Below are positions 2,093 to 32,535 of a DNA stretch of 64,000 nucleotides, in pieces (within the stretch, counting starts at the first letter, position 1; every line of letters begins with the position of its first letter). The translations under genes and the position numbers were made by a program. The DNA comes from Escherichia coli (GTDB taxonomy: Bacteria > Pseudomonadota > Gammaproteobacteria > Enterobacterales > Enterobacteriaceae): assembly GCF_003334785.1 (NCBI RefSeq), contig NZ_QOWV01000004.1; one strand, 5' to 3'. Under the pieces are notes generated by a model. That model did no database searches and was not told the DNA's origin. It saw nothing but the letters and a program-made list of their open reading frames with translations.

Positions 2093-2611
2093 CAAATTAC
2101 TGACGAAGTGCGCGTTGTTTTCTGGCAAATGCGGCATGAGCGTTTGACCTTTCCTATAATAGGGATAATTTTCAATAAATTGTGCTTTGTTCACCAAGTC
2201 TGATGAGTGAAGCACATCAAGCAATTTCTCATTTACAATCCGTCTCAATTACTTGTTAACACCTCTGACAATACCGATTCTGCAAGCTATTCAGTCTTTT
2301 CATTCCATGTAAATTGTCTCGATATTAATATACAAAATATGAATATAAAAAACCAATATATTATCCTTAATTATCTATATATTTTCCTATTTTTCAGCGC
2401 AAACATTCATGTAATGAATAATTATCACCACAAACCACCTCACCAGCACCTTATTATTCACATGATCGTAACTATAAAATTCATTAAATAAATACATCCC
2501 AGCAAGTTGGCTATTTCTGAACGAGTTATTTATTTACATTCACAAACAGATATATATACTGCTTCAGCTTTTTATTTTAAAAAATAAATTTGTTATTAAG
2601 GATATGTTCAT

Positions 2612-3376
2612 ATGTTTTTCAAAAAGAACCTCACAACAGCTGCTATTTGTGCAGCACTTTCTGTTGCAGCATTCAGTGCCATGGCAACAGATTCAACTGA
2701 TACAGAATTAACTATCATCGGCGAGTATACCCCTGGTGCATGTACCCCAGTTGTTACGGGCGGCGGCATTGTTGACTATGGGAAACATCATAACAGTGCG
2801 CTGAATCCGACCGGTAAAAGTAATAAACTGGTTCAACTGGGCCGCAAAAACAGCACATTAAATATAACCTGCACAGCACCAACGCTAATTGCTGTAACCT
2901 CCAAGGATAACCGTCAGTCGACCATTGTAGCGTTAAACGACACATCCTATATTGAAAAAGCTTATGATACTCTCGTAGATATGAAGGGAACGAAAAACGC
3001 CTTTGGTTTAGGTTCTGCGCCTAATGGACAAAAAATTGGCGCTGCATCCATTGGTATTGACAGGTCTAATGGTGGGATTCACGCGGCGGACGATACAGGT
3101 GAAATTCCTGTCGACCTGATTCAAACTGACCACTGGTCAGCAGCGACCCCCACATGGAAAGCCTCATCTAATGGCGCATTCTGCTCGCTGACAAGTTGCT
3201 CAGCAATCGAGCGCGGTTATTCTGTTGCAAAAACAGGGGAACTGACACCTGTTGCCATTACAGCGGTCACCTTCCCGTTACTGATTGATGCTGCGGTAAA
3301 TGACAATACTATTCTTGGTTCTGATGAAACGATCAAACTGGATGGTAACGTCACTATCAGCGTTCAGTATTTATAA
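2612..3376 (+). CDS. gltF: Fimbrial-like secreted protein (DUF1120 type), first gene of yhc chaperone-usher cluster
   Basis: ATG with AAGGA SD; N-terminal signal peptide; C-terminal ...VTISVQYL resembling YhcF C-terminus; 500-bp AT-rich upstream region. Confidence 0.85.
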   Translation: MFFKKNLTTAAICAALSVAAFSAMATDSTDTELTIIGEYTPGACTPVVTGGGIVDYGKHHNSALNPTGKSNKLVQLGRKNSTLNITCTAPTLIAVTSKDNRQSTIVALNDTSYIEKAYDTLVDMKGTKNAFGLGSAPNGQKIGAASIGIDRSNGGIHAADDTGEIPVDLIQTDHWSAATPTWKASSNGAFCSLTSCSAIERGYSVAKTGELTPVAITAVTFPLLIDAAVNDNTILGSDETIKLDGNVTISVQYL

Positions 3377-3547
3377 GAACTTGTAATACAGTTTTTATTT
3401 TTACGCATTAACCAGTTAGCTATAACTCGGACAGATTATGCCCTATGACATGGTCTGTCTTAATCAATCTCATCGCAAACAGTGCATAACATATATTAAC
3501 AATATGTTTCTGCGTTATTTATCATTATTACAGGAGTTTTAATTTAA

Positions 3548-4222
3548 ATGCTCAGACACATTACATTCACTGTATTTATAACAACATCAATGAATACCTT
3601 AGCCACAGGGATGGTTCCTGAAACATCAGTATTGCTGGTTGATGAAAAGCGTGGTGAAGCTAGTATTAATATTAAGAATACAGATGATCATCCTTCATTG
3701 CTTTACACCACCATTGTTGATTTGCCTGAAAGCAATAAATCAATTCGTTTAATCCCGACTCAGCCCGTTATTCGTGTTGAAGCCGGTCAAGTACAACAGG
3801 TTCGATTTTTACTTCAGGCGACTGTTCCTCTGCAATCAGAAGAGCTGAAACGCGTAACGTTCGAAGGTATTCCACCAAAAGATGACAAGAGCAGCAGAGT
3901 TACTGTTTCAATTCGTCAGGATCTACCTGTACTGATCCACCCGGCTTCCCTGCCGGAAGAGCGAGAGACCTGGAAATTCCTGGAATGGCGTAAAAATGGC
4001 GACCAAATTGAGATTAGCAACCCCAGTAATTATGTCGTTCGTATGACCTTACAATTTAAAACGCTCCCTTCAGGAAAAACGGGGGCTATAAATAAGACCT
4101 ATTTTCTACCACACACCAGTACAACTACTGCATTAACAAACGCTACGGATACAAAAGTCGAGTTTTACCCAGCCAGCCGATATGGTTATCGCGGTAATAA
4201 ATATGTCACTGACTTAAAATAA
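3548..4222 (+). CDS. yhcA: Periplasmic fimbrial chaperone (PapD-like), 224 aa
   Basis: ORF with signal peptide; position between fimbrial subunit and usher. Confidence 0.85.
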   Translation: MLRHITFTVFITTSMNTLATGMVPETSVLLVDEKRGEASINIKNTDDHPSLLYTTIVDLPESNKSIRLIPTQPVIRVEAGQVQQVRFLLQATVPLQSEELKRVTFEGIPPKDDKSSRVTVSIRQDLPVLIHPASLPEERETWKFLEWRKNGDQIEISNPSNYVVRMTLQFKTLPSGKTGAINKTYFLPHTSTTTALTNATDTKVEFYPASRYGYRGNKYVTDLK

Positions 4223-4242
4223 CTTTGCCTGGAGCGACAAGG

Positions 4243-6624
4243 ATGTTAAAAAAAACGTTACTGGCCTACACCATTGGTTTTGCCTTTTCTCCCCCAGCCA
4301 ATGCAGATGGTATAGAGATTGCCGCTGTTGATTTTGATCGGGAAACATTAAAATCACTAGGTGTAGATCCTAATATATCGCATTATTTTTCCCGTTCAGC
4401 CCGTTTTTTGCCAGGTGAATATTCACTGATAGTATCAGTAAATGGCGAAAAAAAAGGCAACATTGCTACGCGCTTTGATGAAAATGGCGACATTTGTCTT
4501 GATCAGGCATTTCTGCAACAAGCCGGTTTAAAAATTCCTTCTGAAGAAAAAAATGGCTGTTACGACTATATATTGTCCTACCCGGGTACCACAATCACAC
4601 CATTACCTAACCAGGAAGCGTTAGATATTATCGTTTCACCACAGGCGATCATTCCCATAGGGTTGGATCTCACAAACGCAGCAACTGGTGGAACAGCTGC
4701 GCTGCTAAACTACTCTCTGATGAGCAGCCGTGCAGAATTTTCTAATGGGAGTTCGGACTACTCCCAGGCTGCACTTGAAGGCGGGATTAATATTAATGAC
4801 TGGATGTTACGCAGCCATCAGTTCCTTACACAAACAAATGGCACATTCAGTAACCAGAACTCGTCAACCTACCTTCAACGTACCTTTACAGATCTTAAAA
4901 CACTCATGCGAGCAGGTGAAGTTAACCTCAATAATAGCGTGTTGGAAGGAGCCAGTATTTACGGTATCGAAATCGCACCGGACAACGCATTGCAAACCAG
5001 CGGCAATGGTGTGCAAGTTACTGGTATAGCCAACACCTCTCAGGCTCGTGTCGAGATTCGTCAACAAGGAGTTTTAATTCATTCCATTCTGGTTCCTGCG
5101 GGCGCATTCACTATCCCTGATGTACCTGTTCGCAATGGTAATAGTGATCTTAATGTCACCGTTGTCGAAACAGACGGTAGTTCGCACAACTATATTGTTC
5201 CCTCCACCCTGTTTAATCAGCATGTAGAAAGCTTCCAGGGTTATCGCTTCGCGATAGGGCGGGTAGACGATGACTATGACGAATCACCTTGGGTAATTAG
5301 TGCATCGAGCGGATGGAATCTGACACGCTGGAGTGCAATGAACGGCGGCGTTATCGTAGCAGAAAATTATCAGGCGGCATCAATCCGGTCGAGTCTGGTT
5401 CCCCTGCCCGATTTAACAGTGAGCAGCCAAATTAGTACATCGCAGGATACGAAAGACTCACTGCAAGGACAGAAATATCGTCTTGACGCGAACTACAATC
5501 TCCCATTTTCACTTGGGCTAACAACCAGCCTCACTCGATCTGATCGCCATTATCGCGAACTGTCTGAAGCGATTGATGATGATTATACCGATCCGACTAA
5601 AAGCACTTATGCGCTTGGTTTAAACTGGTCTAACTCCATTCTGGGTGGTTTCAACATCAGTGGCTATAAAACATATAGTTACGACGGTGACAATGACTCA
5701 AGCAACCTTAATATTAACTGGAACAAAGCGTTCAAACACGCCACGGTTTCCGTCAACTGGCAGCATCAACTTAGTGCTTCAGAAAATAATGAAGACGATG
5801 GTGATCTGTTCTACGTCAACATCAGTATTCCATTTGGCAGATCAAACACCGCCACACTGTATACTCGCCATGACGATCATAAAACCCACTATGGTACTGG
5901 TGTCATGGGAGTCGTCTCAGATGAGATGTCCTACTATGTGAATGCTGAACGAGATCACGACGAACGTGAAACGAGCTTGAACGGCAGTATCAGTTCCAAT
6001 CTCCATTACACCCAAGTCAGCCTTGCCGCAGGAGCAAGCGGCAGTGATAGCCGTACTTACAACGGTACGATGTCAGGTGGTATTGCCGTACATGATCAGG
6101 GAGTGACCTTTTCACCGTGGACTATCAATGACACTTTCGCCATCGCAAAAATGGATAACAATATTGCAGGTGTCAGAATTACATCTCAGGCAGGCCCAGT
6201 ATGGACAGATTTTCGGGGTAATGCCGTCATTCCATCAATCCAGCCGTGGCGAACATCAGGAGTTGAGATCGATACCGCCAGCTTGCCAAAAAATGTCGAT
6301 ATCGGTAACGGCACAAAAATGATCAAACAAGGCCGTGGTGCAGTAGGGAAAGTCGGATTCAGTGCGATAACACAACGCCGTGCATTACTCAATATCACAC
6401 TTTCCGACGGCAAAAAACTGCCCAGAGGCGTTGCGATTGAAGATAGTGAAGGCAACTATCTGACAACATCAGTGGATGACGGTGTTGTATTCCTCAATAA
6501 CATCAAACCGGACATGGTGCTAGATATAAAAGATGAGCAGCAATCATGCCGTATTCACCTTACATTCCCAGAAGATGCACCAAAAGATGTGTTCTATGAG
6601 ACAGCAACAGGAGAGTGCCAATGA
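4243..6624 (+). CDS. yhcD: Outer-membrane fimbrial usher, about 793 aa
   Basis: Large ORF; start trimmed from TTG at 4225 to ATG at 4243 preceded by GGAG; usher-like size and composition. Confidence 0.85.
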   Translation: MLKKTLLAYTIGFAFSPPANADGIEIAAVDFDRETLKSLGVDPNISHYFSRSARFLPGEYSLIVSVNGEKKGNIATRFDENGDICLDQAFLQQAGLKIPSEEKNGCYDYILSYPGTTITPLPNQEALDIIVSPQAIIPIGLDLTNAATGGTAALLNYSLMSSRAEFSNGSSDYSQAALEGGININDWMLRSHQFLTQTNGTFSNQNSSTYLQRTFTDLKTLMRAGEVNLNNSVLEGASIYGIEIAPDNALQTSGNGVQVTGIANTSQARVEIRQQGVLIHSILVPAGAFTIPDVPVRNGNSDLNVTVVETDGSSHNYIVPSTLFNQHVESFQGYRFAIGRVDDDYDESPWVISASSGWNLTRWSAMNGGVIVAENYQAASIRSSLVPLPDLTVSSQISTSQDTKDSLQGQKYRLDANYNLPFSLGLTTSLTRSDRHYRELSEAIDDDYTDPTKSTYALGLNWSNSILGGFNISGYKTYSYDGDNDSSNLNINWNKAFKHATVSVNWQHQLSASENNEDDGDLFYVNISIPFGRSNTATLYTRHDDHKTHYGTGVMGVVSDEMSYYVNAERDHDERETSLNGSISSNLHYTQVSLAAGASGSDSRTYNGTMSGGIAVHDQGVTFSPWTINDTFAIAKMDNNIAGVRITSQAGPVWTDFRGNAVIPSIQPWRTSGVEIDTASLPKNVDIGNGTKMIKQGRGAVGKVGFSAITQRRALLNITLSDGKKLPRGVAIEDSEGNYLTTSVDDGVVFLNNIKPDMVLDIKDEQQSCRIHLTFPEDAPKDVFYETATGECQ

Positions 6625-7166
6625 AACGGATAATAACAGGATGCCTGCTGCTGAACTTCGCCATGGCCGCTCAGGCAGAGTGTAATATCTCCAGTAGCAT
6701 ACAAAATATCGACTATGGCAAACGAAGTGCTGCCATGCGCCAAGTTGACCGGGGTAAAACAACACAATTAGCAGACAGAACAATCACGCTGGTAATGCAA
6801 TGCGATCAGGACGCTCATATTCGTGTTCAGTTGAATACCGCTAATATTTCCAACAACGGATTTGGATTTGGCCCGAATGGTTCATTAAATCTGATCGCCA
6901 GCGATGCATTTTCAGGTAGTAACAATCTCGACCTGGCGTTAGCCAGTGGCAAAAATGACAATCCGGGCAGCACAGGAACAGCATCAATTAGTACTTCCCC
7001 CAATAATTGGCTGGTGTTTATGCAAAATGGTCAAGAAGTGGTAATTGATAGCGGTAAAAGCGTTAGCCTCACACTGACAATGGCTCCAGCTTTTAAGGAT
7101 GAAGGGGAACTAACCGACATGACAGATATTACAGGCAATCTGACGGTCCTGGTGGAGGCAAAATGA
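6621..7166 (+). CDS. yhcE: Fimbrial-like protein (DUF1120 type), uninterrupted here
   Basis: ATG at 6621 overlapping yhcD stop (ATGA); signal peptide MKRIITGCLLLNFAMAAQA; AGGAG SD. Confidence 0.75.
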   Translation: MKRIITGCLLLNFAMAAQAECNISSSIQNIDYGKRSAAMRQVDRGKTTQLADRTITLVMQCDQDAHIRVQLNTANISNNGFGFGPNGSLNLIASDAFSGSNNLDLALASGKNDNPGSTGTASISTSPNNWLVFMQNGQEVVIDSGKSVSLTLTMAPAFKDEGELTDMTDITGNLTVLVEAK

Positions 7167-7879
7167 ACAATGTAAAATTACTGATTGCCGGAAGTGCCTT
7201 TTTTGCCATGTCAGCGCAAGCCGCTGATAGAGTATCAATTGACGTTAAGGTGACTCTGGAAGCTGCAGCTTGTACTCCAATACTAAGCAACGGCGGAGTT
7301 GTTAACTTCGGTAGTCATTCAGTCAATAGACTTTCAACGCAGCACTACACACAGATTGGAACACGTAATATTAATATGACTATAACTTGCGAATCCGCTA
7401 CCGGCATTGCGATTACCGCTCGTGATACACGAATGGATAGTATGACCACCGGAAAAGATAGTGGGGGTCAGAGTGGTGTAAAATATACCTTAAATGGCGG
7501 AGGTTATATTAGCCAGACAACGCGCTTATTCGGCTTAGGGAAAACAAAAGATAATAAAAATATCGGTAGTTATGCCGTGTTAATTGATAGCAACAACATT
7601 AGTGCCAGCAATGGTAGCCAGACGTTAGCTGTATCAATAGCAGGTGCAGATGCCGTCATAACAGGGCAAAAAAGAGCATGGCAAACGCTCACCGCTTATC
7701 CGCTTGCAGTCGATCAAAGCTATTATTACACCTTTGTAAAACCAGGTGAAACAACCCCAACTCCTGTAACGAACGCCATTATACCGCTTCAGGTGAGCGC
7801 ATCTATCGCGAATGATTTAGGCGGTTCAGAAAAAATCGAACTTGATGGGAAAGCTGTGATAAGCGTAGTCTACTTGTGA
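7163..7879 (+). CDS. yhcF: Fimbrial-like protein (DUF1120 type), 238 aa
   Basis: ATGA overlap with yhcE; signal peptide; C-terminal ...VISVVYL shared with GltF. Confidence 0.8.
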   Translation: MNNVKLLIAGSAFFAMSAQAADRVSIDVKVTLEAAACTPILSNGGVVNFGSHSVNRLSTQHYTQIGTRNINMTITCESATGIAITARDTRMDSMTTGKDSGGQSGVKYTLNGGGYISQTTRLFGLGKTKDNKNIGSYAVLIDSNNISASNGSQTLAVSIAGADAVITGQKRAWQTLTAYPLAVDQSYYYTFVKPGETTPTPVTNAIIPLQVSASIANDLGGSEKIELDGKAVISVVYL

Positions 7880-8063
7880 TAACAATGCCGGACAGGAGTA
7901 CTATCAGGCATTCGTTTTATACGATCGGTTAATGTTTCAGGAAAGCTCTTCGCATATCTTGGGGAAAGTAAATGTAATACGCTGTTCTTAATTGTTCAGT
8001 GCTCACCCCCCAGAGTATAGCTCATTCCATTATTCAACTTAGCTCCATATAAAGGGACAGATA

Positions 8064-9191
8064 ATGGAATCGCTCTCAGAAGGAACCACAGCAGGCTACC
8101 AGCAAATCCACGACGGTATTATTCATCTGGTCGATAGCGCCCGGACGGAAACGGTACGTAGCGTTAACGCGTTAATGACCGCGACGTACCAGGAAATTGG
8201 CCGACGAATTGTCGAATTTGAACAAGGTGGCGAGGCCAGGGCTGCGTATGGTGCGCAGCTAATCAAGCGACTATCAAAGGATTTATGTCTAAGGTATAAG
8301 CGTGGGTTCTCTGCAAAAAACTTACGCCAAATGAGGCTTTTTTACCTCTTTTTTCAACATGTTGAAATTCGCCAGACAATGTCTGGCGAATTAACACCAT
8401 TGGGAATTCCGCAGACACCGTCTGCAGAATTCCCATCGGCAAAGATTTGGCAGACGCTGTCTGCCAAATCTTTCCCCTTGCCCAGGTCCACCTACGTCCG
8501 TTTACTTTCCGTTAAAAACGCTGACGCCCGCAGCTTTTATGAAAAAGAGACGCTCCGCTGTGGCTGGTCTGTTCGCCAGCTAGAGCGGCAAATTGCGACC
8601 CAGTTTTATGAGCGGACACTACTGTCACATGACAAATCAGCCATGCTGCAACAACACGCTCCTGCCGAGACGCATATTCTTCCGCAACAGGCGATACGCG
8701 ATCCCTTTGTGCTCGAATTTCTGGAATTGAAAGATGAATATTCAGAATCCGATTTTGAGGAGGCGCTGATCAACCACCTGATGGATTTCATGCTGGAACT
8801 TGGGGATGATTTTGCCTTTGTTGGTCGGCAGCGAAGGTTACGCATTGATGACAACTGGTTTCGTGTCGATCTGCTGTTTTTCCACCGCCGTTTACGCTGC
8901 CTGCTAATCGTCGATCTAAAAGTGGGCAAATTCAGCTATAGCGATGCCGGACAGATGAATATGTATCTCAACTACGCCAAAGAGCACTGGACGCTACCGG
9001 ATGAAAATCCGCCCATCGGTCTGGTTCTCTGTGCAGAGAAAGGAGCCGGAGAAGCGCATTATGCTCTGGCAGGTTTGCCTAACACCGTTCTGGCAAGCGA
9101 ATATAAGATGCAACTACCTGATGAGAAACGACTCGCAGATGAACTCGTTCGAACACAGGCGGTGCTAGAGGAAGGCTATAGACGCCGTTAA
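8064..9191 (+). CDS. yhcG: DUF1016 / PD-(D/E)XK nuclease-superfamily protein, 375 aa
   Basis: ORF 375 aa; C-terminal region has candidate D ... (I/V)DLK PD-(D/E)XK motif (RVDLLFF ... LIVDLKVGK); contains in-frame 39-bp repeats. Confidence 0.85.
   Translation: MESLSEGTTAGYQQIHDGIIHLVDSARTETVRSVNALMTATYQEIGRRIVEFEQGGEARAAYGAQLIKRLSKDLCLRYKRGFSAKNLRQMRLFYLFFQHVEIRQTMSGELTPLGIPQTPSAEFPSAKIWQTLSAKSFPLPRSTYVRLLSVKNADARSFYEKETLRCGWSVRQLERQIATQFYERTLLSHDKSAMLQQHAPAETHILPQQAIRDPFVLEFLELKDEYSESDFEEALINHLMDFMLELGDDFAFVGRQRRLRIDDNWFRVDLLFFHRRLRCLLIVDLKVGKFSYSDAGQMNMYLNYAKEHWTLPDENPPIGLVLCAEKGAGEAHYALAGLPNTVLASEYKMQLPDEKRLADELVRTQAVLEEGYRRR
8360..8480. repeat. 3x tandem 39-bp repeat, each unit carrying a 13-15 bp-arm palindrome (core CAGAC-N-GTCTG), in frame inside yhcG
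   Basis: CAGAC cores at 8373, 8412, 8451 (39-bp period); palindromes 8366-8392, 8402-8434, 8441-8473; encodes three 13-residue peptide repeats (x-I-x-Q-T-x-S...). Confidence 0.75.
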
Positions 9192-9204
9192 TTTCAGCGG
9201 TTTC

Positions 9205-9232
9205 GAATTCTGCAGACAGTGTCTGCAGAATC
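9205..9232. repeat. Solo palindrome GAATTCTGCAGAC-ag-tGTCTGCAGAAT, same family
   Basis: Inverted repeat read directly, 14 nt after yhcG stop. Confidence 0.6.
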
Positions 9233-9250
9233 TTTAAAACGAACTAAGTT

Positions 9251-10583
<1,333 letters not shown>

Positions 10584-10587
<4 letters not shown>

Positions 10588-11273
10588 AGCACCGCCTTTT
10601 TCATCGCTGTGTTGTACCACTGACAAATGTGCTCAAGACGCGTGATTGCAGAACCGACCGTCACCGCCCACGCGCCGTGGCGCATCGCATCCGCCGCCTG
10701 AGCAGGCGTGTTGTAACGCCCTTCGGCAATCACCCGACATCCGGCGTCGCTCAACGTTTTCACCAGCGCCAGATCCGGCTCTTCTGGCGTTTCAGGCGTG
10801 GTATAGCCAGAAAGCGTAGTGCCAATAATTTCGGCTCCCAGCTTTTGGCATGCCAGGCCGTCTTCCGGCGTTGAGCAGTCGGTCATCGCCAGTAAACCGT
10901 GATGGTGAATACGTGCCAGCAGCGTTTCAACAGGCACCGGACGCGGGCGGTCGGTGCCGTCAATGGCGATAATGTCCGCGCCCGCCTGCGCCAGCGCATC
11001 AACATCTTCAATATAGGCCGTGATGCGTACCGGAGAATCCTCCAGATCGCGTTTCACAATTCCAATAATCGGCACGCTCACCACCGCACGCGTGGCTTGC
11101 AGATTTGCCACACCTTCAATGCGAATGGCAACCGCGCCCGCCTGTTCTGCCGCTAATGCCATGGCGGCGACGATTTCGGGTTTATCGAGCGGGCTGTCCG
11201 GAACCGGCTGGCAGGAGACAATCAGGCCACCGTTAGCAGCGATTTTTTGATCCAGTTGTGCAAGTAACGACAT
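10584..11273 (-). CDS. nanE: N-acetylmannosamine-6-phosphate 2-epimerase, 229 aa
   Basis: Start trimmed to MSLLAQLD with AAGGGAAG SD; operon context. Confidence 0.9.
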
Positions 11274-11320
11274 ACATCTTCCCTTAGCGAAAGGCCCGGT
11301 ACATAGACCGGGCAACAGGA

Positions 11321-32309: not shown

Positions 32310-32535
32310 GCTGCCGGATGCGGCGTGAACGCCCTATCCAGCCTACGGTTATGTTCCGGTTTGTAGGCCTGATAAGACGCACAGCGTCGCATCAGGCAAC
32401 GGCTGTCGGATGCGGCGTAAACGCCTTATCCGACCTACGGTTATGTTCCGTTTGTAGGCCTGATAAGACGCACAGCGTCGCATCAGGCAACGGCTGCCGG
32501 ATGCGGCGTGAACGCCCTATCCGACCTACGGTTAT
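32310..32535. repeat. BIME: cluster of about five REP palindromic units
   Basis: Alternating GCCGGATGCGGCGTGAACGCCTTATCCGGCCTAC-type and TGTAGGCCTGATAAGACGC...GCATCAGGCA-type units read directly. Confidence 0.85.

Follow-up and report, generated by a model that had tools for sequence, protein, structure and literature searches.

Introduction

The YhcG/DUF1016 proteins make up a large and widespread nuclease family that lacks a function and recurs in type I restriction-modification (R-M) and other defence loci. YhcG from Escherichia coli (COG4804/pfam06250) was placed in the PD-(D/E)XK superfamily by Kosinski, Feder, and Bujnicki (2005; PMC1189080), with DUF91/NucS, YraN, and the archaeal Holliday-junction resolvases as its nearest relatives, and its helical N-terminal domain of about 200 amino acids (aa) was remarked on as unassigned. 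YhcG was later reported to be associated with HsdMRS and McrBC (Hu et al. 2009; PMC2672614), and deletion of yhcG was reported to be synthetically lethal with hypomorphic alleles of parE, dnaN, and dnaB (PMC2672614). DUF1016 is enriched beside type I R-M loci (PMC9881135), and a representative of PDC-S02, the defence candidate to which YhcG corresponds, gave no protection in E. coli B against T4, T5, or T7 (bioRxiv 10.1101/2024.09.26.614923). Here we report on yhcG in a stretch of 64,000 nucleotides (nt) of E. coli DNA (contig NZ_QOWV01000004.1), referred to as the window, and on a palindromic DNA element that lies inside this gene and inside the genes of its homologs.

The window protein is the name-giving member of the family (PF17761 + PF06250; COG4804; PDC-S02), and it agrees with the described members in its domains, its motif, and the R-M and defence neighbourhoods of its homologs. 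There is no difference at the protein level, but a conserved intragenic palindrome is absent from the searchable descriptions of the family and is not mentioned in the searchable literature on DUF1016, YhcG, or PDC-S02; a literature search for the palindrome sequence returned only unrelated short hairpin RNA (shRNA) and primer matches. Earlier publications already cover the gene, its fold, and its association with defence islands, and the new part is the arrangement of gene plus palindrome. The conserved intragenic DNA element provides a specific candidate ligand or substrate for an uncharacterized family.

Palindromes in yhcG and its surroundings

The open reading frame (ORF) at 8064–9191 on the plus strand starts with ATG and encodes 375 aa. 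That it is E. coli yhcG and a regular member of the YhcG/DUF1016 family is almost certain from the ORF list, the RefSeq annotation of near-identical strains, and two Pfam domains. The 13-mer CAGACNNNGTCTG is present five times in the window (at 2074, 8373, 8412, 8451, and 9213), while 0.01 copies per window are expected from shuffled sequence and none of 100 shuffles reached five. Three of the copies are inside yhcG, exactly 39 nt (13 codons) apart, each within an inverted repeat with arms of 12–18 nt. Folding of the window palindromes as single-stranded DNA (ssDNA) yields between −10.8 and −15.7 kcal/mol, with z-scores from −6.3 to −8.3.

The units of yhcG are palindromes of 25–27 bp, each reading ATT-nnn-CAGAC-NNN-GTCTG-n'n'n'-AAT. 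The middle triplets of units 1–3 are CGC, CCG, and TGG, and the complement of each is present in the opposite arm. The three units keep one codon phase, and each is therefore translated as I-x-Q-T-x-S-x-(E/K). Unit 1 (8366–8392; inverted repeat I7), AATTCGCCAGACA-A-TGTCTGGCGAATT, has 13-nt arms that are 100% complementary, codes for EIRQTMSGEL, and folds as ssDNA with −13.1 kcal/mol (z −8.3). Unit 2 (8402–8434), GGGAATTCCGCAGAC-ACC-GTCTGCAGAATTCCC, was found by the inverted-repeat scan; it has one C:A mismatch and codes for GIPQTPSAEF (−13.4 kcal/mol, z −7.1). Unit 3 (8441–8473; inverted repeat I5), AAAGATTTGGCAGAC-GCT-GTCTGCCAAATCTTT, codes for KIWQTLSAKS (−15.7 kcal/mol, z −7.8). Tandem Repeats Finder reported nothing for the yhcG repeats, because the units are too divergent outside the arms. 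An antisense ORF of 59 aa (8263–8442, minus strand) repeats the I-x-Q-T-x-S peptide (ILQTVSAEF, IRQTLSGEF) only because the palindromes read alike on both strands; the repetition does not count as evidence of a gene.

The two remaining copies, in 63 kb of the window, are extragenic. The palindrome at 9207–9231 (inverted repeat I9), ATTCTGCAGACA-G-TGTCTGCAGAAT, has 12-nt arms that are 100% complementary and lies 15 nt past the yhcG stop codon, in frame with it, and 19 nt past the nanQ stop codon. In allele P0021 the stop codon is lost and this palindrome is read as RILQTLSGES. In other E. coli strains the downstream solitary palindrome is ATTCTCCAGACACTGTCTGGAGAAT, a compensatory change (CTG/CAG or CTC/GAG). 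The palindrome at 2068–2092, ATTCGCCAGAC-TGT-GTCTGGCGAAT, was detected by a pattern scan. Its arms are identical to those of unit 1, and it lies 15 nt past the gltD stop codon, in the GC profile at the left edge of the low-GC gltF-yhcA-F island. This block (2100–7900; gltF-yhcA-yhcD-yhcE-yhcF) has 34–47% GC, compared with 53–57% for gltBD and 52–60% for the nan operon. Of 5,426 E. coli genomes, 1,849 have the gltD-proximal palindrome together with its flanks, each in a single copy. In many strains gltD is followed by a gap of 183 nt and then yhcG, and both the low-GC block and this palindrome are missing. A simple form of the idea that the gltD-proximal palindrome flanked an ancestral yhcG cassette was rejected, as the palindrome is absent where gltD directly abuts yhcG.

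The first-pass annotation of the window had mentioned palindromes inside and just downstream of yhcG as a side remark. Their presence is borne out by the five copies of the 13-mer; the minor weight given to them is not, for they are a nucleic-acid feature of the whole family.

Conservation of the palindrome across the family

The family comprises 21,241 representatives of 50%-identity clusters at E ≤ 1e-3. For the analysis of the DNA we used 80 homolog loci from about 20 phyla (homologs 37–59% identical). Similarity to E. coli YhcG and two peptide patterns guided their choice, which leaves very distant members under-sampled. Taxa with homolog loci include Methanoperedens, Altiarchaeales, DPANN archaea, Cyanobacteria, Planctomycetes, Bacteroidota, and Firmicutes. 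Many homologs of 37–45% identity have between one and three peptides matching [EQK][IK]xQTxSxx[FL], and their flanking residues co-vary as a DNA palindrome dictates. In three metagenomic homologs the DNA has the CAGAC-NNN-GTCTG core, with arms that are different and still complementary. The exact 13-mer CAGACNNNGTCTG was found 62 times in 98.9 kb of homolog genes and three times in 1,058 kb of flanks, where two of the three copies fall in paralogous DUF1016 ORFs.

Most of the units occupy the same place in the gene: of the 134 units in which 9 or more of the 11 arm pairs are formed, 116 share one codon phase, and their median position in the match is 288 nt. The family consensus is ATT-nnn(n)-CAGACA-S-TGTCTG-(n)nnn-AAT, and homologs carry tandem arrays of 1–5 units with a spacing mode of 39 nt. 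The variant cores are all self-complementary (TCGAC/GTCGA, GCGAC/GTCGC, GAGAC/GTCTC, CAGTC/GACTG, CAATC/GATTG, and TACCC/GGGTA), and the CAGTC/GACTG core gives rise to the peptide QSxT. From the peptides we predicted that homologs without QTxS would carry other palindromes, and this was borne out in the DNA, where they occupy the corresponding site (GACGC/GCGTC, CACCC/GGGYG, CCACRC/GYGTGG). One such homolog has ATTCGAGACGC-GGC-GCGTCTCGAAT, with 11 of 11 pairs; another has ATTGTGCACCC-ACT-GGGCGCACAAT and two further palindromes in steps of 39 nt; a third has ATTCCCCACGC-AGT-GCGTGGAGAAT and ATTCTCCACAC-GCT-GTGTGGAGAAT, again 39 nt apart. Degenerate CAGAC-type palindromes in other reading frames were seen in one such homolog (peptide NLTDGVRQIK).

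A scan of IMG/VR with the strict consensus gave 31 matches, 19 of them within DUF1016 ORFs. The spacers were left free in the search pattern, and they are self-complementary in all 31. Several of the 12 remaining matches are recognizable remnants of DUF1016 genes, e.g. SISQTVSAEFKLSWSHYLILMRM. Solitary copies usually lie 0–61 nt past stop codons. On IMG/VR contigs, solitary palindromes were observed in L087 (5813), L093 (3424), L100 (6506), L101 (9938, two adjacent), L106 (34), and L112 (3207); they have no DUF1016 gene in the fetched stretch and are mostly intergenic or near the 3' ends of ORFs.

The uncultured bacterium LJ_bin-5039 (locus L031, 2300–5100 and 7389) has an intergenic array of 5–7 palindromes, upstream and downstream of its DUF1016 gene. 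Their outer arms are constant (CCAATTCT...AGAATTCCAA), the inner stems are variable and self-complementary, and each palindrome is trailed about 40 nt on by a second palindrome, GGACTTGCGCCGGCGCAAGTC. This genome has a local palindrome family that resembles repetitive extragenic palindromic (REP) sequences. As a general description, a dispersed REP-like family was rejected, since extragenic copies are rare.

Could the palindrome be a selfish or neutral mini-element, a small mobile palindrome that settled early in a tolerant loop, persists and duplicates there, and has its arms kept complementary by template-switch repair, without serving the gene? In favour are the disorder and variable length of the loop, the solitary intergenic copies, and the intergenic array of 5–7 related palindromes just described, and in-frame palindromic insertions known from Rickettsia provide a precedent. 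However, the element is nearly confined to one gene family (62 versus 3 exact cores) and keeps one homologous position, mostly in one phase, through protein divergence of 37–59% identity in Bacteria, Archaea, and phages. A neutral palindrome would be expected to decay or to be lost by deletion, yet the constraint on synonymous sites is strong. We consider this explanation very unlikely.

Selection on the nucleic acid

That the palindromes of the yhcG family are selected as nucleic acid, and not as peptide, is in our view close to certain. When synonymous codons were shuffled within genes and the proteins were kept, the number of in-phase units fell from 113 to 10.1 ± 3.4, with a maximum of 23 in 200 shuffles, and the best unit per gene fell from 9.9 to 7.8 of 11 pairs. 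At 44 I.QT.S motifs found from the peptide alone, codon usage departs from that in the remainder of these genes (values in parentheses): TCT accounts for 98% of Ser codons (20%), CAG for 95% of Gln codons (47%), ACA for 77% of Thr codons (32%), and ATT for 82% of Ile codons (48%). The strong constraint on synonymous sites points to purifying selection.

In the best units of the 80 genes, 91.8% of cells are in standard pairs, as opposed to 67.0 ± 0.9% in shuffles. Doubly changed cells number 196, versus 54.9 ± 5.3 in shuffles, and controls with a slid register are 25–42% paired. These pairing counts lean towards structure because the units were chosen for pairing; the test free of this bias is the synonymous shuffle. 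Units of the same gene are only 49% identical at stem positions 6–8, and each is 83% Watson-Crick paired there. At 41 positions two units of a gene have different bases on both arms, and pairing is kept in each of the two. Such compensation within a gene favours intra-strand pairing (hairpin or cruciform) or templated symmetric repair, and it disfavours two independent half-sites read by one protein.

The main question then is whether the selected molecule is DNA or RNA. An element acting in RNA could be a set of hairpins in yhcG mRNA that control translation or decay, or an embedded, repeat-type RNA ligand of the protein, similar to a type III antitoxin built into an ORF. The hairpins are very stable, the covariation fits RNA pairing equally well, and the tandem arrays (1–5 units, 39-nt mode) are reminiscent of ToxI repeats. 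Most solitary copies, at 0–61 nt past stop codons, are positioned like REP or terminator hairpins. On the other hand, mismatches on the coding strand show no G:U bias (T:G + G:T 19, C:A + A:C 29), so that G:U-compatible mismatches are not in excess on the sense strand. Conservation of the loop bases extends the two-fold symmetry of the duplex, as position 1 is A in 79%, position 3 is T in 62%, and the central base is C or G in 83%; complementarity of loop positions 1 and 3 (77 observed, about 64 expected as an estimate from marginal base frequencies) is not clearly significant. No U-tract follows the palindrome hairpins, and the terminator scan flags none of the palindromes. Rfam 15 gave no family; its only score was mir-266 noise of 23.6 bits, where the gathering score is 80. 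The two domains of the protein are similar to folds that bind or cleave DNA. Archaea have kept the element as well, and bacterial hairpin-dependent pausing and termination do not apply to them. The lack of a G:U preference, the symmetric loop bases, the missing U-tract and Rfam match, and the presence in Archaea together favour a DNA-level element over a sense-RNA element, on a small sample, and we regard the RNA explanation as unlikely.

Variation within E. coli

E. coli YhcG alleles differ by whole units of 13 aa, having 349, 362, or 375 aa. K-12 has CGC/GCG as the spacer of unit 1 and strain CUVET19-1704 has GTG/CAC, so pairing is kept, and arms identical to those of unit 1 are also present in unit 2 of another allele. 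The CUVET19-1704 allele (L123) is 92–100% identical to K-12 except for a block of 40–78% identity at yhcG nt 210–420 (window 8270–8480). This divergent block covers the conserved helix at aa 84–96 and the palindromes, and it stops at the last palindrome arm. From its sequence it looks like a mosaic or a hypervariable cassette within the species.

Two independent rearrangements have their junction in or exactly at the end of unit 3 (window 8441–8473). In strain PSJ-07 (L085, 3001–3030) the junction accompanies an IS1B insertion and loss of the 5' half of yhcG. In strain DL21 (L086, 3516–3545) the 3' half of yhcG is replaced by unrelated DNA with a small transposase gene.

These observations raise the possibility of a recombination or diversification hotspot, in which palindromes would be kept for breakage and exchange, shuffling the preceding helix and the loop and changing the number of units. 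The unit-wise allele differences, the end of the 40–78% block at the last palindrome arm, the two junctions (IS1 and sequence replacement) at unit 3, and the recurrence of the unit 1 arms in another allele's unit 2 and after gltD would all fit. A hotspot nevertheless leaves unexplained why specific bases (ATT/AAT, CAGACA/TGTCTG) are conserved over about 20 phyla and why almost all members of the family retain an unstable sequence, and instability may be a by-product of any palindrome. We find it quite unlikely as the reason for which the palindromes are maintained.

Protein domains and predicted nuclease

Pfam divides YhcG into DUF1016_N (PF17761; aa 19–184, plus strand 8118–8615, E = 1.3e-36) and YhcG_C (PF06250, "YhcG PDDEXK nuclease domain"; aa 208–360, plus strand 8685–9143, E = 1.6e-56). 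In the AlphaFold2 model the N-terminal part is all-helical, as the first-pass annotation had expected, and the C-terminal core is a beta-sheet, giving the restriction-endonuclease-like alpha/beta core fold. The best structural matches of the N-terminal domain are the ParB/Spo0J/Noc/KorB DNA-binding domains, and the match is weak; a ParB/Srx N-terminal CTPase domain was not found in YhcG, for which Pfam gives DUF1016_N and YhcG_C only. The N-terminal domain is split by the palindrome-coded loop, which sits between the most conserved helix, GFSxxNLxxMRxFY (aa 81–96), and the LSWSHY helix. The loop (aa 101–136) is variable in length among homologs and predicted to be disordered, with model residues 101–134 having a predicted local distance difference test (pLDDT) score below 50 and no predicted secondary structure.

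Conservation of the nuclease residues was followed in an alignment of 30 diverse homologs (35–79% identity). E245 (plus strand 8796–8798), the first acidic residue of the E-D-E(I/L/V)K motif given in PMC1189080, is invariant. D269 in RVDLLFF (plus strand 8868–8870) is at least 90% conserved. In D284-L285-K286 (plus strand 8913–8921), the (D/E)xK motif of LIVDLKVGK, position 284 is D or E, L285 is invariant, and K286 is at least 90% conserved. The nuclease signature that had been proposed from D269 and D284-x-K286 is upheld by this alignment. Q297 and Y301 of the segment Q297-M-N-M-Y301 (plus strand 8952–8966) are also at least 90% conserved, and we take this segment to be the QxxxY motif of the RecB family (RecB/Cas4 type). 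Judged from sequence, YhcG_C is a predicted PD-(D/E)XK nuclease with its catalytic residues E245/D269/D284-x-K286 intact, and it is likened to junction- and structure-specific enzymes (Hjc/NucS/Cas4-like).

In PADLOC, the PDC-S02 profile PDLC04807 matches YhcG residues 9–370 (E = 2.8e-131), and a CRISPR-associated PD_DExK model matches as well. PHROG 22762, with function not known, also matches. A search of NCBIfam gave no family at E ≤ 0.01, and a sequence search of the PDB gave noise only (E about 0.3).

Genomic context

Upstream of yhcG is yhcF (7163–7879, plus strand), and nanQ/yhcH (9251–9715, minus strand) is convergent with it, according to the RefSeq annotation of a near-identical strain. 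The ORF list and RefSeq confirm the earlier placement of a 375-aa plus-strand ORF between yhc fimbrial and convergent nan genes. The neighbours of yhcG in the window are the fimbrial yhcA-F, glutamate synthase, and sialic-acid genes; with housekeeping operons on both sides there is no conserved partner. The neighbouring genes do not give the defence-island location that marks PDC-S02, and no DNA methyltransferase adjoins yhcG in the window, as one would for a type II restriction endonuclease. The gene was found in 4,468 of 5,426 complete E. coli genomes, full-length in at most 3,347, with identities of 80–100%. A promoter and terminator scan gave no convincing yhcG promoter and no strong sigma-70 match upstream of yhcG. 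A divergent stationary-phase noncoding RNA, G0-10703 (RNA-seq, PMC7967276), would run antisense to the 5' untranslated region of yhcG over 128 bp (window about 7880–8063).

At the 80 homolog loci, where neighbourhood annotation took in only the largest neighbour clusters, R-M or defence-type neighbours were present at no fewer than 18, often on the same strand and a few nt away. They include N6-methyltransferases (10), HsdR (7), DrmD-like SNF2 helicases (5), and a DUF1156/NADAR antiphage protein (3). In Flavobacteriia (loci L043, L045, L048, and L051, from Flavobacterium and Patiriisocius; about 8000–13900), a gyrB/parE-like gene lies 12–105 nt upstream of the DUF1016 gene on the same strand. 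A gyrA/parC-like gene lies 23–591 nt downstream in three of the four loci; the distance in L048 is inconsistent. These gyrase/topoisomerase-like flanks and the reported parE lethality of yhcG may be a coincidence or a link to DNA topology.

The first-pass annotation had described yhcG as an orphan PD-(D/E)XK-like nuclease and had called the evidence for a novel system weak. Taken further, this framing would make yhcG a stand-alone and essentially novel nuclease of defence, repair, or mobile elements, with a partner or target yet to be identified, in which palindromes are incidental. The PDC-S02 and CRISPR-associated PD_DExK matches speak for such a role, as do the neighbours at 18 or more of the 80 loci, the enrichment of DUF1016 beside type I R-M loci (PMC9881135), and the reported association with HsdMRS and McrBC (PMC2672614). 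The orphan label, however, does not survive: YhcG is the founding member of YhcG/DUF1016, assigned to PD-(D/E)XK since 2005 (PMC1189080), annotated in RefSeq, and included in PDC-S02, so with family, fold, and defence-island association all published it does not count as novel. No partner accompanies the E. coli copy, which has housekeeping operons on either side, and the single tested PDC-S02 gene did not protect. The synonymous shuffle and the covariation show that the palindromes are not incidental. As a whole, this description of the locus is in our opinion very unlikely.

Among the hairpins of the generic scan, repeated units of TGATAAGACGC-ACA-GCGTCGCATCA and GCATCAGGCAA-CGG-CTGCCGGATGC are found at 32382–32510. 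They are presumably ordinary REP or bacterial interspersed mosaic elements (BIMEs), unrelated to the yhcG palindromes.

Discussion

The explanation that we favour is that the palindrome is a cis-acting DNA site, capable of forming a hairpin or cruciform, that is recognized by the product of the gene in which it lies. As a dimer, the ParB/Noc/KorB-like N-terminal domain would recognize the conserved bases, ATT/AAT on the outside and CAGACA/TGTCTG on the inside, along with the geometry of the stem, and the Hjc/NucS/Cas4-like nuclease would act on structured DNA or be held at the palindrome. A site inside the ORF would always travel with a gene that is often moved into foreign operons, e.g. type I R-M loci. 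The site would likely let a potentially toxic nuclease limit itself or be parked, and would define its substrate class. A role on structured replication or topological intermediates would agree with the genetic interactions reported for parE, dnaN, and dnaB.

The gene product is suggested as the reader because it is the only specific factor common to all hosts. The 19 of 31 IMG/VR matches within DUF1016 ORFs, the self-complementary spacers of all 31, the fold matches to palindrome-binding domains of the ParB type, the resemblance of the nuclease to junction- and structure-specific enzymes, and the reported parE/dnaN/dnaB lethality were counted as further support. We hold recognition of the palindrome DNA by YhcG itself to be a realistic possibility, if somewhat short of an even chance. 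The broader proposal, that YhcG/DUF1016 genes are self-contained nuclease-plus-site modules in which each ORF carries the structured DNA element that its product recognizes, is put forward a little more tentatively.

Several points weigh against these proposals. A nuclease that cuts its own site would endanger the chromosome, and a stem of 11–12 bp is short for cruciform extrusion in vivo. The sample behind the mismatch asymmetry is small. Template-switch repair of quasipalindromes could yield some arm complementarity without selection. The ParB-type fold match of the N-terminal domain is weak. When protein columns were compared with core type, only the palindrome-coded residues, which are trivially linked, co-varied, and the core classes are not clades. 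The defence framing is itself unproven, because the single PDC-S02 representative that was tested gave no phage protection.

The palindromes are removable by synonymous recoding with the protein unchanged. If the palindrome is the protein's own site, the arrangement would represent a general design for linking a cis site to a mobile gene, and it would account for autoregulation of the family and for a substrate consisting of structured DNA from replication, topological stress, or invasion by foreign DNA. If that reading is false, the family still presents an unusually clear case of nucleic-acid selection overriding codon choice and peptide across Bacteria and Archaea.

Comparison with known systems

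The RecB, Cas4, NucS, and Hjc nucleases share 10–16% identity with YhcG, which differs from them in having no helicase, CARF, or Fe-S partner domain and in its N-terminal domain. The palindromic elements of Rickettsia are similar in that palindromic DNA is translated in a tolerant surface region, which in yhcG is the disordered loop. The Rickettsia elements are longer and are found in many unrelated genes of one genus, whereas the yhcG element is tied to one family across prokaryotes; instead of insertions into many unrelated genes, we found one homologous position in one gene family.

ParB/Spo0J/Noc/KorB proteins, with their palindromic sites parS, NBS, and OB, provide the best, though weak, structural matches of the YhcG N-terminal domain. 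Proteins of this type bind palindromes of 13–16 bp as dimers, and the spo0J ORF of B. subtilis contains a parS site. The YhcG palindrome is longer than these sites, and its variable, self-complementary spacer is not required by a dimer that simply binds duplex DNA. The origin iterons of lambda in gene O and the pT181 origin in repC are, like the yhcG units, in-frame tandem dyad repeats in a linker-coding part of the gene, variable in number and sequence. YhcG differs from these systems in that it carries a nuclease domain in place of an initiator domain and that the E. coli copy lies on the chromosome; no evidence was found for a role of YhcG as a replication initiator.

The REP/RAYT (REP-associated tyrosine transposase; TnpA-REP) systems resemble yhcG in that a nuclease-type gene is accompanied by short covarying palindromes of its own family, some of them adjacent to the gene. 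RAYTs are HUH/Y1 enzymes and REPs occur as hundreds of intergenic copies, whereas yhcG encodes a predicted PD-(D/E)XK enzyme, its palindromes are mainly intragenic, and extragenic copies are rare. Neither an HUH/Y1 transposase-like enzyme nor high-copy intergenic dispersal was seen for yhcG in the window and in the 1,058 kb of homolog flanks. If YhcG does recognize its own palindrome, the family would form an equivalent, based on PD-(D/E)XK enzymes, of the RAYT-REP or initiator-iteron arrangement, present in tens of thousands of prokaryotic and phage genes.

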